From positions 1 through 48,694 of the IMG/VR virus record IMGVR_UViG_3300033153_005799: a stretch of 48,694 nt of DNA. One strand, given 5' to 3'. The translations under genes were made by a program, and so were the position numbers. The notes under the pieces were generated by a model, which was not told the origin of the DNA, did no database searches, and saw only the letters and a program-made list of their open reading frames with translations. The stretch comes from a virus. Its lineage: Duplodnaviria; Caudoviricetes. Positions 10,138 through 48,689 of the stretch are shown here, in pieces; position 1 is the first letter of the stretch; every line of letters starts with the position of its first letter.

Positions 10138-11430
10138 ATGGAAATAAAACTGTTTGACCCTACAGAAATAAGAGTTCGTGAAGGGATGAATAGGTACAGG
10201 AATGATATGGGAGATTTGCAAGAACTTGCTGACTCCTTTACAAGGACACGTCAAATCTTACCTATTGTAATTACAAAGGAAATGGAACTAATAGATGGTG
10301 GACGGCGCTTAGCCGCTTGTATACTTGCAGGTATTCAAGTCAAAGCTGTTTTCGAAGATGTCGTTGATGCAGCAGAGATGAGAGAGTTAGAGTTGGAGAG
10401 TAATCTCTGTAGAAAGGATTATACTCCTGCAGAATACGCCTTCGCTGTTGCAGACCTCCACAAGTTTAAAGTGGAGCAATATGGAGAAGCTGTATCAGGA
10501 GCTAAAGGTGGTCATACATTAGCTGATACAGCAAAGTTGATTGGAAAGACTAAGGGAACTGTTATCAGTCAGCTTCAAATAGTTGAAATGATTGAAGCAT
10601 TTCCACAGCTTGCTGAAGGAAAGAAAGCAAGTGAAATTAAACGAGCCTATAAAGGCCTTGAAAGAGTTGCTTCTGCTATTGAAGGAGTAAAAGAGTATGA
10701 AAAGCAAGCAGAGTTAGGTAAGAAGCTACACACTCTTAAGCAAGCGGACGCCATAGACCATATGGTTACAATGCCTAACAACTCTGTTGACATCTTATTA
10801 ACAGACCCACTGTATGGTATTGAGCACGATAGAATTGGTATTGCTGCTGGTGGTCATACTGGTGGTATGTCAGCATACGGCGTAGACTTTAGTGATGATA
10901 AATATAAAGCACTTGCAGGGTATTACTTCCTCGCCAAAGAAAGCTTCCGCTTTACTAAGTCTGATGCACACGGCTACATCTTCCACGCAATGGAGCACTT
11001 CAACTACCTCCGAGATATTTTCATGGACGTAGGATGGAGAGTTTATATTAAACCATTTATCTGGATTAAGCGCTCTACTGGTCAATGCAACGTACCTACA
11101 GCATGGCCATCCGATTGCTATGAGCAGATAATGTATATCAGGAAAGATGATTCTCGAATTATTAAGCAAGGTATGCCAAACTGGATTGAATGCCCTCCAG
11201 TCAATTCTTCAGTTAAAGTACATAAATATGAAAAGCCTATCCCTCTGTTACTTAACCTACTTGAGCGTGTTGCTCTTCCAGGACAAATGCTTTACGACCC
11301 TTTCATGGGAAGTGGCTCTGCCATTGAAGCTGCAACTATACTGAAGATGTTTTCTGTTGGAGTTGATAATGCAATAGAAGCTTATGCAGTTGCACTTGAG
11401 AGGATGAATAAACTAGAAAAGGAGAAATAA
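10138..11430 (+). CDS. ParB-like domain fused to N4/N6 DNA methyltransferase (beta-class order)
   Basis: PIVI...LIDGGRRLAA...ELESNLCRKD, HTH-like LADTAKLIGK; catalytic TDPLY; SAM-binding YDPFMGSGS. Confidence 0.88.
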   Translation: MEIKLFDPTEIRVREGMNRYRNDMGDLQELADSFTRTRQILPIVITKEMELIDGGRRLAACILAGIQVKAVFEDVVDAAEMRELELESNLCRKDYTPAEYAFAVADLHKFKVEQYGEAVSGAKGGHTLADTAKLIGKTKGTVISQLQIVEMIEAFPQLAEGKKASEIKRAYKGLERVASAIEGVKEYEKQAELGKKLHTLKQADAIDHMVTMPNNSVDILLTDPLYGIEHDRIGIAAGGHTGGMSAYGVDFSDDKYKALAGYYFLAKESFRFTKSDAHGYIFHAMEHFNYLRDIFMDVGWRVYIKPFIWIKRSTGQCNVPTAWPSDCYEQIMYIRKDDSRIIKQGMPNWIECPPVNSSVKVHKYEKPIPLLLNLLERVALPGQMLYDPFMGSGSAIEAATILKMFSVGVDNAIEAYAVALERMNKLEKEK

Positions 11431-41680: not shown

Positions 41681-43573
41681 TTAATCTTTTGTTGTACTTG
41701 ATTTCTTAGCTTGTATAATTTTAGCCTCCGCTTCCTTCTCCTTAATATCCACCTCCTTTTCTTTCAACTTCATTTCCCATTCAGCCATTTTACGGTCATG
41801 GTCAGCCTGTTTAGCTTCAGCTTCCCTTTGCGCATCATGATAAGCTTTTACCTGCTGTTTAACACTAAATGGTAGTCCAGCATAATCTAAGAATACCTCC
41901 GGTGGTATACTTCCAGGATTATTATGTGCAAAGTCACCAAGCATTTGAGCAATACCAGACCTCATTGAAATAGTCTCAATAGTTTCACCTATCTCAATAT
42001 CATATTCTCCTACAGTTATATCATTCCAAGTAGGACTTTGAGGATTCATCTGTGAGTTAATTTCCATCAGCTGCATTCCTTTCTCTCCTTGAACCCTAAT
42101 CATTTCAGAGTCAGCAATGTATTGCTGCATAAAGGAAAGCAGTATTTTAGAATCTTTAATTCTTGATTTTCGAAAGTTATCGAATAGAATGTAGAGAACA
42201 ACTACACCAGTTTCCTGTCGCATTCTTAAAGCAACACCAGGTTCTCTACTTGATGTCTGTACACTCATAAGTGGGTCTTGTATACCAGAAGCATCCTTCA
42301 TACTCTGCGAACTCATAGCATCAAACTCTTTATAGATAGGTGGTATTGAAGGTTGCTCTTGAAAACCTACTTTATCATACATACCCTTTGAAATTTCAAG
42401 GTGAAAATTCGGGTCAGTACTTCTCTTTTCATAATCATCTATATTAGTAACGGCACCAACCTCATGCTTTAACATACCTTTAGGTAATGTTTTAAGTTGA
42501 GAAGAAATCTGTCGGCGCATATCATTCTTAGCTCTTTGAGGGTCTTTCATCATAGTAACCGCACCAAAGAAGTTATTGTTATCATCATCTCTATAGGCGC
42601 CATACAGCGACATTGGAAAACCCTCATAGTTATGAGGACTTACTCCTTCTTCAAGCGTTACACTTCCACTAAACAGTGAGTAGTAATAAATCTTCCTAAA
42701 TCCTGGAGCACTCATAGGCTCTTCAAACTTTTGTTCAATTACTTCACCATTCTCATCCTCTCCAACAGGAACTCCTTCAGCAAGTGTTTGCACAAACTTT
42801 GTGTAGTCAGCTTTACTAAGCCATTCCATCTTTCCGGTCATAGGATTTTGAAACCAGATAACCTTTCGCATCTTATAATACCAGCCCTCAGCAATGCGAT
42901 ACTTATCATTTGCTTCATTAAAGAAGGAAGGCATATCAGTAGTTCCACCACCACCCTTAACATTAGTTATGTCCACTTTAGGAAAGTAAAGCTTTATTTC
43001 TTCTTCAGTAAGCCAAGTATCAATAAATACATACCTTGCATCACTTAAGTCAAGTTCAACACTATCTGGGTCAACATAAAAGTTAAATCCTGAATACCGC
43101 TTACACTCCAATTTAGGTTTAAATGGATTATCCCTGTTAATGAAGAAGTACATAAGACTACGACCTGACTTAACAGTATGTAGGAAACAATCAAGTTGTC
43201 TATCAATCAAGCCAATCTTTTTACTAAAGTGTTTTACCGAATTACCAACCAACTCAGCCAACGGCTCATCTTCCTTTCCAATAGGAAACACTTCAGGTTC
43301 ATGCCGTGTCTGAGAAGCAACACCATAGAGCATATCAATCTTTGGCTTTACTTCATTGTAAACACTTGGTACTTTATTCTTAGCTTTAAGAGTACTTTTC
43401 ACTTCATCAGTATCTTGATCACCAGCATAGAATGCATAATCTTCCGTCGCTACAGTTCTATACTTTGTCTCTGATGTACTCCTCTCAGCATCACGTAACC
43501 AATCAAGCAGGAACTTATTATTTTCCTTGTTCTCTGTTCCTGTATCAGGTGTTTCCATTCTTTCACTTGGCAT
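41681..43573 (-). CDS. portal protein (P22-like)
   Basis: EDYAFYAGDQ, YNEVKPKID, MKDPQRAKN, SGI...SREPGVA, GEYDI motifs; follows terminase. Confidence 0.88.
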   Translation of the reverse strand: MPSERMETPDTGTENKENNKFLLDWLRDAERSTSETKYRTVATEDYAFYAGDQDTDEVKSTLKAKNKVPSVYNEVKPKIDMLYGVASQTRHEPEVFPIGKEDEPLAELVGNSVKHFSKKIGLIDRQLDCFLHTVKSGRSLMYFFINRDNPFKPKLECKRYSGFNFYVDPDSVELDLSDARYVFIDTWLTEEEIKLYFPKVDITNVKGGGGTTDMPSFFNEANDKYRIAEGWYYKMRKVIWFQNPMTGKMEWLSKADYTKFVQTLAEGVPVGEDENGEVIEQKFEEPMSAPGFRKIYYYSLFSGSVTLEEGVSPHNYEGFPMSLYGAYRDDDNNNFFGAVTMMKDPQRAKNDMRRQISSQLKTLPKGMLKHEVGAVTNIDDYEKRSTDPNFHLEISKGMYDKVGFQEQPSIPPIYKEFDAMSSQSMKDASGIQDPLMSVQTSSREPGVALRMRQETGVVVLYILFDNFRKSRIKDSKILLSFMQQYIADSEMIRVQGEKGMQLMEINSQMNPQSPTWNDITVGEYDIEIGETIETISMRSGIAQMLGDFAHNNPGSIPPEVFLDYAGLPFSVKQQVKAYHDAQREAEAKQADHDRKMAEWEMKLKEKEVDIKEKEAEAKIIQAKKSSTTKD

Positions 43574-43748
43574 TTTGTTCCTCTTGTTTTTCTATTGCTT
43601 CAAGTGTATACACTAATTCATTGTATAAATCAATACCAGTAGGATGCATATGTTGACCTGAGCAAACAAATATTCGACCATGTTTTAGGGTGACTATAAT
43701 TTCCTTAAACAACTTTAATGAAAGTATAACTTTTTTATTTGTTTTCAT
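43563..43748 (-). CDS. small hypothetical protein
   Basis: ATGA overlap with terL stop. Confidence 0.55.
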   Translation of the reverse strand: MKTNKKVILSLKLFKEIIVTLKHGRIFVCSGQHMHPTGIDLYNELVYTLEAIEKQEEQNAK

Positions 43749-45211
43749 CCAGTCATCCAGGTCTCACGACCATCATCCATAAAGCTATTATCTGGTTGGG
43801 GTTGCACACTTTCCTGTCTATCTTTCTGATTCTTCTTAGATTTCCACATTAAACTTGCAACTCTGTGAAAGTACTCAGTTAAACAAAGGGCATCTGCAAT
43901 ATTAGGACTTGCAATACCTCTCAGTTTCATCTTCTTCTTACTCTCTACTACATACCCTCCCAGGGCATTGAACTCATAGTAAGGACTGGCAAGTTCATTA
44001 CACAACTCCTCACCCATTTCACCAATAGGAAAGGAGTAAACTCCCCTCATACACTTTTGTCTTACAGCAACCCACAACTCATCCCGTAAGATATTATACT
44101 TTTCTCTATTACTAGATTTCCATTTAGTATTAATACCATGAACATCAGCTCTCCTGAGCTTTTGCAGCCAGTCGGTAACACCAGCACCAACGCCAATTTC
44201 ATCTATGGCAATACCATCAGCTTCGTTGTCAGCATACACCTGCAAAATAAAACCGCCAAAAGTAATAGTATCCATGCCCTGAAAAGTTTCCCAAGGGTCA
44301 ATTCTTAATCCCTGCCGTGGCATGATAATACTCTTATCTTCGCCATATCTTGCAACATCAACTCCAAGGTAAATAGGCTCATCCTCAGCAACTTCAATCT
44401 CATTACCAACACACTGCTGTGCCCAATGTAGTGGAATTAACGTCCTCTCATCTTCAGTCGGTGGGTCACCAGTAACACGTATTCTATACACGTTAGAATC
44501 AATGCCATACTTAGTAGCCATATAAGCCGGATACTCGTCCTTAACATTGGTGCTTTTTCTACTATCCCAGTGAAACCGAGTCCAAGGTTTCCTGAGTTCT
44601 TTGTGGAAATGACTATCATAGAAGTAACCTGTATTCCTTGTCATATTTCCAATAAGTAGTACTTTATTGTCTCTCTGCGTCATAGCACCTTCAAGTGGTA
44701 TAAACACAGGGTCTGGGATACCAGATGCTTCATCACAGACAATAAGTAAGTGTTCACCATGGAAGCCAGCAAGTGTTTCAGCCTGATCTTCTTTTGTAGC
44801 TTTAACAGAAGGACTTACTGCTCTACACCACCATTCTTTTGGAGATTCTTTATGAAACAACTTATCCTTCTGTATAACAAATTCATCTTGTAAGATACTC
44901 ATACGAAGCCATTTACTTAACTCACTCCATAAAATATCATTTAACTGTCGTGCAGTAGGTGCAGTACAAACGACCTTTGCATATGGCCTTGTAATCATAA
45001 ACCAGAATATTGCCCAACTTGCTCCAGCATCTTTACCAGTACCATGACCAGACCTAATAGTTATTCTGTTAGAAGCATTTAACGATTGAAGCAGTTCAAC
45101 CTGCTGGGTACTCGGCCCATCCTGTGGAACTTGTCCCCAGTCGAATGCTTCCATAGCAAATATGAGTGGACTTTGTCTCCACTCTCTAAGTTTTCTTTCT
45201 ACTAAGTCCAT
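43745..45211 (-). CDS. terL: terminase large subunit
   Basis: Walker A SGHGTGKD, APT..QL, Walker B LIVCDEA, coupling IGN, nuclease GVDVA and SPNIADA. Confidence 0.93.
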   Translation of the reverse strand: MDLVERKLREWRQSPLIFAMEAFDWGQVPQDGPSTQQVELLQSLNASNRITIRSGHGTGKDAGASWAIFWFMITRPYAKVVCTAPTARQLNDILWSELSKWLRMSILQDEFVIQKDKLFHKESPKEWWCRAVSPSVKATKEDQAETLAGFHGEHLLIVCDEASGIPDPVFIPLEGAMTQRDNKVLLIGNMTRNTGYFYDSHFHKELRKPWTRFHWDSRKSTNVKDEYPAYMATKYGIDSNVYRIRVTGDPPTEDERTLIPLHWAQQCVGNEIEVAEDEPIYLGVDVARYGEDKSIIMPRQGLRIDPWETFQGMDTITFGGFILQVYADNEADGIAIDEIGVGAGVTDWLQKLRRADVHGINTKWKSSNREKYNILRDELWVAVRQKCMRGVYSFPIGEMGEELCNELASPYYEFNALGGYVVESKKKMKLRGIASPNIADALCLTEYFHRVASLMWKSKKNQKDRQESVQPQPDNSFMDDGRETWMTG

Positions 45212-45591
45212 ATACGAATAAGTTCTGTCTTGTTATTATTAGTTAAATACATCTTAATCATATCATACATATAATTTAATTGAGGAGGTAAACAGTTAGC
45301 AACTATTAAAACATTTTCAGCAGTATAACCAGAAAGCAACTCAATATTTTCATTTTTATTTGCTTGCACACTTAAAGGAATAAACTTACAAAACCAATCG
45401 TATTTATTTTTCATAAATAAACCATTTTGCTTACAATCAAATTCTGTATTAATTGAAAGTTGATTACACAAAGTAAATACTTTATCTTGTAATATCTTAT
45501 TATCTTTACTTGTACCAATACATAGTATTTTAGGGTAACTTACTGTAGTAAGAAACAATATTATTTCTTTGGCTGCTTTTTGTAAGTCCAT
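45202..45591 (-). CDS. truncated, inactive-looking paralog of the terminase ATPase domain
   Basis: collinear by eye with TerL residues about 63-189; no Walker A; Walker B LIVCDE replaced by LIVANC. Confidence 0.75.
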   Translation of the reverse strand: MDLQKAAKEIILFLTTVSYPKILCIGTSKDNKILQDKVFTLCNQLSINTEFDCKQNGLFMKNKYDWFCKFIPLSVQANKNENIELLSGYTAENVLIVANCLPPQLNYMYDMIKMYLTNNNKTELIRIWT

Positions 45592-45921: not shown

Positions 45922-45997
45922 ACTGCCCAAGGGCGCGAGATCGGAGGTAAATCCCTTTGACGGTAATAACTCCCGGGTAGTCAGGCCCTCGGGCAGT
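45922..45997 (-). other. GC-rich intergenic stem-loop
   Basis: 13-bp stem ACUGCCCGAGGGC/GCCCUUGGGCAGU on the - strand. Confidence 0.55.
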
Positions 45998-47178
45998 TAG
46001 TCTGCCTTCCTTCTTATTTTAAACGGTTTCCCTTTAGTTGCTTTTATATGTTTAGGCAGCTCCACTGCTCCTGCCTTCCTTCTTAAATACATTGGAGGCC
46101 CCTTAGCTTCTGCAGCATCCTGCAGTGCTCGTGCCATTTCTCCAGGAGTTAGTTTCTTTTTACTTTTAGGACTTCTTACAACTCCTTCAATCCACTCATC
46201 AAAAGTATCAGGTAGCTTTCCTTCTTTAACTTTCTTTTGTATAGCAGTTCTCTTTCTAAATCCTTTAGCTGCTTCCCCTAATGTTTTCCTGTAAAGCGTA
46301 GGAGACCTTTTCATCATGTCTTGTGTAACAACTTTTGCTGCTATATTAAAGGCTTTATCATATTCTTTACTTGTTATTTTCCTTCCTTTATCTACTGCCC
46401 AAGAAGTTAATCTTGCGTGTGTTTCAGTAGGGTCATCTTTATAAAACTTTCTCCCAAATTTTACTTTATTAGAAGCTTTAGCTCTTGCAACTGCTTTATT
46501 TGCTATATCAGAAGATGTTTCAAGTACAGCAGCGTTATAACCCTTTCTTGTTTTATCTCCTTTAGTTGCATGTGCAGTAGAGTGTACTGTTTCATGCCAC
46601 CACTCTTCTGAACCAGCTTTTGGGTCTAACTGAATTTTAGATTCTCCAGGTTTCTGTCCTATCCTTACATTTCTTCCGGTAGTTCCTGGAGGAAGTCTAT
46701 CTGTATACTTAACATTTATTAAAGGGTCAAATACTTCTTTTGGGGTATTTCTCATAGTAGCTGCCATTGCTCTAACTTTCTTTGGTGGTAGTAGACTATT
46801 AGTAATTTCTCTTGCACCTACATTGGTATACCCAGCTTTTAGTGCTTTTTTCTTAGTATCAATTCTTATTTTTCCAGCGCTACTTCCAAGTGTCTTGCGA
46901 GCAGCAGCTCCTGTCATCCCTGCACCAACAGTGTTTGGAGGCAACCCTCCAGGCTTTCCACCTACTATACCACTAAGCACAGCAAGTGTCAACTCCTCAC
47001 TGGTTATATCTAACGGCTCACCTTTATAAGCACTTATCAAAGCTCCACCAGCTTTACTTGCTGGTGTTAGCATTTCAGTACCTAACTGCTTGAAGCCTCT
47101 ACCGACCTTGTGAACATAGTCACTCACGCCTTTTCTTCTTCTAATATCTTCAGCAGTCTTCTTTTTTCTAATTGGCAT
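45997..47178 (-). CDS. basic protein with HExxH zincin-like motif
   Basis: IQLDP...WWHETVH...PTETHAR; very K/R-rich. Confidence 0.6.
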   Translation of the reverse strand: MPIRKKKTAEDIRRRKGVSDYVHKVGRGFKQLGTEMLTPASKAGGALISAYKGEPLDITSEELTLAVLSGIVGGKPGGLPPNTVGAGMTGAAARKTLGSSAGKIRIDTKKKALKAGYTNVGAREITNSLLPPKKVRAMAATMRNTPKEVFDPLINVKYTDRLPPGTTGRNVRIGQKPGESKIQLDPKAGSEEWWHETVHSTAHATKGDKTRKGYNAAVLETSSDIANKAVARAKASNKVKFGRKFYKDDPTETHARLTSWAVDKGRKITSKEYDKAFNIAAKVVTQDMMKRSPTLYRKTLGEAAKGFRKRTAIQKKVKEGKLPDTFDEWIEGVVRSPKSKKKLTPGEMARALQDAAEAKGPPMYLRRKAGAVELPKHIKATKGKPFKIRRKAD

Positions 47179-47213: not shown

Positions 47214-47678
47214 TTATAAACTTGGTTCATACTCCGGATTAGTTACATCCTTAATTATTTCAGTAACATCATCTCCATTAACATCTACAATATCAACTTC
47301 CTTAGCATTCAGTGCCAGCTCCTCTTTCTCTATCTTAATTAAATAACCCACCAGTCCCTTTATGTCAGTCGGTTTACCTTCCAATACTTGTTCCTTATCT
47401 TTCAGTATTTTAAATGCGAATACTAAGTCGCGAAGTGGGGCTTGTTCTATTTTATCAGGAGTAATTGCTTCGAGGATTTTAGCTTGAATACTTGTTAATT
47501 GTAAGGACTGAAGTGGCCTGTACTTCATAAGAATGCCTTGTTCTTGCTGTATCTTGGCAATCCTATTGGAGATGGTTTGAGGAGAACAGCCTATTTCGTC
47601 TGCCTGCTCCTTTATCGTTAGTCCCATATCTCCAAAGTCAAGTAGTACATCAGTATCTATATCTAATAGCTTTCCCAT
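47214..47678 (-). CDS. probable terminase small subunit (HTH)
   Basis: GLTIKEQADEIGCSPQTISNRI helix-turn-helix; first late gene, upstream of terL. Confidence 0.65.
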   Translation of the reverse strand: MGKLLDIDTDVLLDFGDMGLTIKEQADEIGCSPQTISNRIAKIQQEQGILMKYRPLQSLQLTSIQAKILEAITPDKIEQAPLRDLVFAFKILKDKEQVLEGKPTDIKGLVGYLIKIEKEELALNAKEVDIVDVNGDDVTEIIKDVTNPEYEPSL

Positions 47679-48586: not shown

Positions 48587-48689
48587 GGTGTATTTAGTGC
48601 GATATGTAGCCTGTACGTGTACGTTGTACGTGTATTTATTCCCTACATTATTGGGTCATTTCCGTTGACCTTTCTTACCTTCTCTTAAG
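48587..48689. repeat. right arm of imperfect inverted repeat with TGTACG repeats
   Basis: reverse complement resembles 95-220. Confidence 0.75.

Follow-up and report, generated by a model that had tools for sequence, protein, structure and literature searches.

An inactive half-copy of the large terminase ATPase domain overlapping terL in a podophage with a P22-like portal

Introduction

Why would a podophage carry, directly in front of its intact large terminase gene, a second and much shorter piece of the same protein? The question is raised by the window analysed here, a stretch of 48,694 nt (IMG/VR record IMGVR_UViG_3300033153_005799), in which a 129-aa ORF resembling the ATPase core of the large terminase (TerL) precedes terL. 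A preliminary description had regarded this ORF, hereafter the copy, as an inactive terminase and proposed that it acts either as a decoy for terminase-sensing immunity or as a regulator of packaging. The terminase is the main trigger of Avs1-3 and Upx, and how phages escape from such broad sensors is mostly open. As described in the accessible part of PMC13601566, Avs2 reads the terminase ATPase domain with a bridging ATP, and Upx is predicted to bind unfolded core strands. According to the available portion of the Avs2-trypsin preprint (10.64898/2026.08.25.746987), Avs2 contacts the terminase with its TPR near Walker A and with its C-terminal domain around Walker B.

Results and discussion

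Organisation of the locus

By appearance, the window is a near-complete podophage genome, encoding a P22-like portal, a major head protein, a DNA polymerase and a primase. On the minus strand, the gene order is probable small terminase (TerS), 393-aa ORF, 106-aa ORF, copy, terL, 61-aa ORF and portal, with the following features.

47214..47678, minus strand: HTH protein, probable TerS, judged from its position and weak HTH matches
45997..47178, minus strand: 393-aa ORF, no function assigned, common to the relatives with 73-75% TerL identity
45591..45911, minus strand: 106-aa ORF with a hydrophobic N-terminus, joined to the copy by TAATG (1-nt overlap)
45202..45591, minus strand: the copy (P0001, 129 aa), a TerL-derived half-domain ORF without catalytic motifs (BLASTP, shuffles, alignment, fold models)
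45292..45297, minus strand: copy codons N99-C100, at the position of TerL Walker B D160-E161 (alignment)
45202..45211, minus strand: overlap of the copy end and the terL start, 10 nt; the first 9 nt of terL, ATGGACTTA, are identical to the first 9 nt of the copy
43745..45211, minus strand: terL, intact large terminase, 488 aa (phrog_2, E 2e-43)
45029..45049, minus strand: TerL Walker A, GHGTGKD (residues 55-61), not in the copy (sequence)
44639..45031, minus strand: terL stretch matching the copy, residues 61-191 (alignment)
44729..44734, minus strand: TerL Walker B DE, residues 160-161 (sequence)
43563-43748, minus strand: 61-aa ORF between terL and portal, AT-rich (29.6% GC)
41681..43573, minus strand: P22-like portal (PF16510, E 1e-81)

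The copy is an intact and AT-rich ORF beside terL, as had been described, with a GC content of 25.4% against 40.9% for terL and 38.1% for the window, the minimum among 65 ORFs. To judge from the overlaps, the 106-aa ORF, the copy and terL would be translationally coupled. An identical copy sequence is present in an independent IMG/VR contig (L001), ruling out an assembly artefact of the window, and a split or frameshifted terL is likewise ruled out by the presence of a complete terL, part of which the copy duplicates. Promoter and repeat scans around the copy returned nothing exceeding chance. The 61-aa ORF between terL and portal is unlike TerL and without a relative among the loci fetched.

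Elsewhere in the window, a run of 94 A opens the contig (1-94) and probably arose as an artefact of sequencing or assembly. Short GTACA(A)AC-like tandem motifs were seen by eye at 155-230, with similar ones in opposite orientation at 48610-48645. A ParB-like domain fused to a DNA methyltransferase is encoded at 10138-11430 (plus strand), immediately before the DNA polymerase.

Likeness to TerL and loss of catalytic motifs

The collinearity with TerL residues of about 63-189 proposed earlier is borne out. BLASTP aligns copy residues 6-99 with TerL 64-160 (28/97 identical, E 2e-11), and the local alignment score of 109 is reached by none of 2000 shuffles, the best of which scored 54. A global alignment pairs the copy with TerL 61-191 (36/128 identical), although the likeness is weak over the final 30 residues. 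A TerL-core profile made without the copy also recovers it (E 4e-11), while searches of Pfam, PHROG, NCBIfam and PDB sequences with the copy gave no significant family. A diversity-generating retroelement was ruled out as the source of the changes, which are not adenine-specific.

What the alignment removes is as clear as what it retains. The copy begins right after Walker A, stops at motif III, and lacks the Q motif, Walker A, motif Ia, the Walker B DE, motif III, the lid and the nuclease. The loss of the TerL sequences APTARQL and GNMT had not been mentioned in the preliminary description. The start just past Walker A, the loss of the Walker B DE and the missing nuclease had all been noted in the preliminary description and are found again here: the alignment runs from residue 61, the last of GHGTGKD, and N99-C100 stand at D160-E161. 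The same holds for the family introduced below, in which all four members start after Walker A, D160 is replaced by N, the GN is gone, and a length of 126-136 aa leaves no room for a nuclease. These proteins therefore lack the P-loop, the Walker B/motif III pair and the nuclease of an active large terminase; significant likeness in sequence and fold to the TerL ATPase marks the copy as derived from it.

Distribution of the copy

A word-indexed search for relatives of the copy yielded P0003 only, a protein of 128 aa and its closest homologue (58-60% identical); an exhaustive profile search added P0156 and P0157, the latter on a 674-bp contig. The four members (126-136 aa, pairwise identity 35-60%) share length, ends and 26 invariant columns, and the four-sequence profile recovers these four among 756 candidates of 69-238 aa. 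In a tree they form one clade (100/100) on a stem of 4.6 changes per column, for which the tool issued long-branch and composition warnings. No match was obtained by tblastn of the copy in annotated phages, and scans of viral contigs with the copy alignments found only this phage. Feature matches in the ESM Atlas (0.93-0.94) are to unnamed viral clusters and are unaligned; P0156 has none.

P0003 shares its source, contig count and longest contig (46,702) with a TerL, a portal, a capsid protein, Sak4 and a 135-aa protein, and a polymerase matches it in longest contig only. From this we infer that P0003 and these proteins belong to one sister phage. P0003 ends in IWT and the TerL of the sister phage begins with MDL, compatible with the same overlap. 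A dead, nuclease-less paralogue upstream of and overlapping terL is thus present in the window and presumably in the phage of P0003.

Beyond these, the arrangement is patchy. A second TerL match upstream of terL was found in none of 92 other loci (64 TerL clusters; TerL 55-99% identical, at least 450 nt upstream). In the three closest relatives (TerL 73-75% identical, one of them a short contig), both the 106-aa ORF and the copy are missing, and a very basic 49-aa ORF precedes terL in their place (L021 3072-3221, L005 99-248, L101 3746-3895). Across the loci L002-L099, the interval separating TerS from terL differs greatly within this phage family, ranging from direct TerS-TerL coupling to long inserted genes. 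Some TerL relatives of about 830 aa carry PF05203, PF05204 and PF14528 (P0036, P0119, P0122; L019 2239-3618) and are likely intein-bearing.

Since related TerLs occur in bins of several phyla, no host was assigned. Avs2 scored above the cut-off in none of five genomes with related TerLs and in 3 of 401 genomes in each of two phylum samples.

Rate of change and selection

Between the window and the sister phage, the copy is 60% identical, compared with 90-96% for six core proteins (TerL 95%, portal 90.5%). TerL residues 60-191 are 100% identical. On this comparison, the copy changes about eight times as much as TerL.

Such a rate could reflect neutral decay, which was examined in simulations that ignore indels and take the present-day sequence as start. 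At d 0.2-0.22, the divergence that gives about 60% identity in these simulations, both frames rarely stayed open. This was the case for 2 of 400 pairs at d 0.2 and, with four other spectra at d 0.22, for 1-12 of 500. At each d from 0.3 to 0.9, none of 400 pairs remained open. Neutral change at d 0.7 lowered identity to 25-31% and never left 58% (0/500 in each of four spectra); dS, to be read as a proxy only, was 0.68-0.99 in five TerL pairs and 1.6 in one (TerLs 90-98% identical, taken from the loci analysed). With stops forbidden, simulated changes were as conservative as those observed in 3 of 1000 runs by BLOSUM and 4 of 1000 by hydrophobic class. The rarity of open frames under neutrality together with the conservative changes indicates that the copy protein is under purifying selection and not in neutral decay. 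Thus, neither of two outcomes that would have spoken against the preliminary description, absence of homologues and neutral decay, is seen.

Origin

Against the profile of the copies, 69 cores of this TerL family reach 40-81 bits, compared with 7-27 bits for five distant TerLs, which points to this podophage TerL family as the parent. The earlier term "self-derived" is not established as regards the phage's own terL gene: its TerL ranks 25th of 74 cores against the copy profile, and the AU test places the copies equally well with their own TerL clade (p 0.49) and with the outgroup (p 0.48). An MDL start is found in 6 of 121 TerLs, five of them in the own clade, and three of the four copies start with MDLQ. 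Noticed after the fact, these MDL starts and the shared first 9 nt hint at a local tandem duplication with an internal deletion.

Predicted fold and surfaces

AlphaFold2 modelled the copy with a pLDDT of 80 and a pTM of 0.75 from the four copies alone, and with a pLDDT of 87 when 74 TerL cores were added to the alignment. Both models share their elements except for the last strand, for which the prediction is poor when only the four copies are used. The structural comparison with TerL suggested earlier was made on the single-sequence model of the ESM Atlas and gave a TM of 0.70-0.74. With Foldseek, the best PDB match was 4znl (TM 0.61, E 0.007), and most top matches in BFVD were terminases, with modest E-values. 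The copy is thus predicted to be a folded alpha/beta terminase half-domain, its fold corresponding to the middle of the large terminase ATPase domain (PHROG 2; TerL structures of P74-26, Sf6 and PhiV-1). BFVD also holds several uncharacterised phage proteins of 108-155 aa (Arthrobacter, Gordonia, Mycobacterium and Vibrio phages) with a predicted fold like that of the copy (TM 0.43-0.59), which may be further small terminase-like proteins.

Conservation is unevenly spread over this half-domain. The TerL-conserved columns were divided by side, in classes drawn from the topology of the fold after the alignment had been seen. On the catalytic side, 1 of 24 columns was kept in at least three of the four copies, compared with 8 of 17 on the other side (Fisher p 0.002). 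Conserved residues that follow strand ends, at the ATP site, have nearly all been lost, and loops leading into strands are often retained. These loops may be needed for folding alone. When the published contacts of the Avs2 C-terminal sensor are mapped by their offset from Walker B, not by superposition, eight of nine fall inside the copy and one in a gap; most of these residues in the copy differ from TerL. The sensor contacts at the Q motif and Walker A lie in the part that is missing. When the copy was modelled in complex with the C-terminal 580 residues of a stand-in Avs2 (an NF041813 match, homologous to 9o4e), the score was 0.00, which counts neither way.

Comparison with known systems

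The preliminary description knew of no report of this arrangement. It is already in print: for Rak2-like phages, phiM12 and phiN3, PMC5259590 describes a large terminase in truncated form next to terL, giving no function there, and in the record of one Rak2-like phage (KU574722) such a gene, CBB_274, overlaps the terL start. CBB_274 (235 aa) lies directly upstream of terL with a 14-nt overlap, is about 22% identical to its own TerL (E 4e-9) and has a GC content of 31.8% against 37.3% for terL. Like the copy, it lacks a nuclease domain, has degenerate Walker motifs and a lower GC content than terL, and overlaps terL. Unlike the copy, it spans the entire ATPase domain, in which the P-loop is degenerate and the RG intact, derives from a T4-type parent and is about twice as long; the 129-aa copy has nothing up to Walker A or after motif III and belongs to a TerL family of P22-portal podophages. 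The copy profile does not match CBB_274 significantly (its best domain scores below 0 bits), placing the copy outside the Rak2-type family. What is new is therefore an independent and much smaller truncated terminase beside terL, from a P22-portal podophage.

Other small terminase-like proteins are known from the Avs2 literature and are compared here by description. According to the accessible text of PMC13601566, T4 vs.8 is, like the copy, a stand-alone phage protein homologous to the terminase ATPase domain with an open function, but it has retained Walker A and B, and EcAvs2 is activated when the two are co-expressed. Ksap1 and Ksap2, as presented in the available parts of PMC11564622 and PMC13601566, resemble the copy in being small and lineage-restricted, with a terminase-like sheet predicted to sit mainly on the Avs2 C-terminal sensor. 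They differ in having no clear TerL descent and in triggering Avs2, and Ksap1, which is dispensable (PMC11564622), is not encoded beside terL. The literature search found no function for truncated terminases beside terL, and no terminase decoy was found in the accessible portions of PMC7824862, PMC13716836 and 10.1101/2025.06.06.658234.

Possible roles of the copy

Lacking the usual motifs for binding or burning ATP, the copy would have to act by binding. Our leading interpretation, to which we give a probability of roughly 40%, is that this dead ATPase half is kept by selection as a binding protein in host conflict, most probably as a bait for, or a competitor of, immune proteins that sense the terminase. 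The copy would be translated along with TerL by way of the overlapping stop and start, would retain the loops on the face of the sheet that is remote from the ATP site, and would fill the C-terminal pocket of the sensor without the ATP-bridged contacts that help to activate Avs2. It is because the region contacted by the sensor is present and the ATP-bridging region absent that this role is placed first. Fast change and patchiness also fit a partner in host conflict better than TerL or portal, both of which are nearly unchanged. On the other hand, identity between the copy and TerL is low, at about 28%, and any fast, patchy accessory gene would look alike, the interval upstream of terL being variable throughout the family. 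Moreover, Ksap1, Ksap2 and vs.8 engage part of the Avs2 pocket and yet activate the sensor (accessible part of PMC13601566), so by analogy a protein that mimics TerL in part might itself act as a trigger.

The place of the gene in the packaging operon and its overlap with terL would also suit a packaging modulator that, on binding TerL, TerS or portal, adjusts the assembly of the motor or holds it back, or one that poisons the motor of a related phage in competition. The recurrence of the arrangement and the basic residue retained at TerL R130 (KKRR) agree with this, but the drift of the copy to 60% beside a TerL at 95% and a portal at 90.5% does not; motif Ia is missing, the conserved SPSVKA..QAE stretch is the least conserved part of the copy, and 92 related loci package without it, leaving a packaging role unlikely. 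Rather unlikely, too, is that the half-domain has become a scaffold for a target unrelated to terminase sensing, such as another defence system or a host protein, with the site beside terL being only where the duplication occurred. The very long stem would be expected then, as would the 46 of 127 positions common to the two closest copies but unlike TerL and the new invariant residues (E9, Y64, F70, N99, Y109, Y115), and the available text of PMC13601566 discusses such a reading for its non-terminase activators, as suggested for Ksap1, Ksap2 and vs.8. However, the separate origin of dead copies immediately before terL in T4-type jumbo phages favours a role linked to TerL itself.

Finally, the protein might be irrelevant, with the frame kept open only so that ribosomes reach the terL start, or with a duplicate slowly dying. 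This would explain the lowest GC content in the window, a residue composition typical of AT-rich DNA (a FYMINK fraction of 0.40-0.45 in all four copies against 0.25), the lack of a clear Shine-Dalgarno sequence before terL, and dN/dS values against terL of 0.47 (NG86) and 0.87 (LWL85), both of them saturated. Yet relatives without the copy also lack a Shine-Dalgarno sequence before terL, changes simulated with the frame kept open are more radical than those observed, and four members at 35-60% identity retain the same ends and core, which makes an idle protein quite improbable.

Significance

Returning to the bait or competitor, a broader proposal is that decoys made from a phage's own terminase have evolved repeatedly, of which the 129-aa form would be the minimal version, reduced to the face that the Avs C-terminal sensor reads (or to the strands that Upx reads) and rid of the ATP-bridging half required for switching the sensor on; this generalisation is tentative and somewhat doubtful. 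The copy is the shortest such truncated terminase met in this analysis. Since one defined half of the domain is removed, it amounts to a naturally occurring deletion mutant, with which the terminase surface that binds a sensor could be told apart from the one that activates it. If it is a decoy, the copy would define a self-mimic class of counter-defence; if it modulates the motor, it would represent a new control point in packaging.
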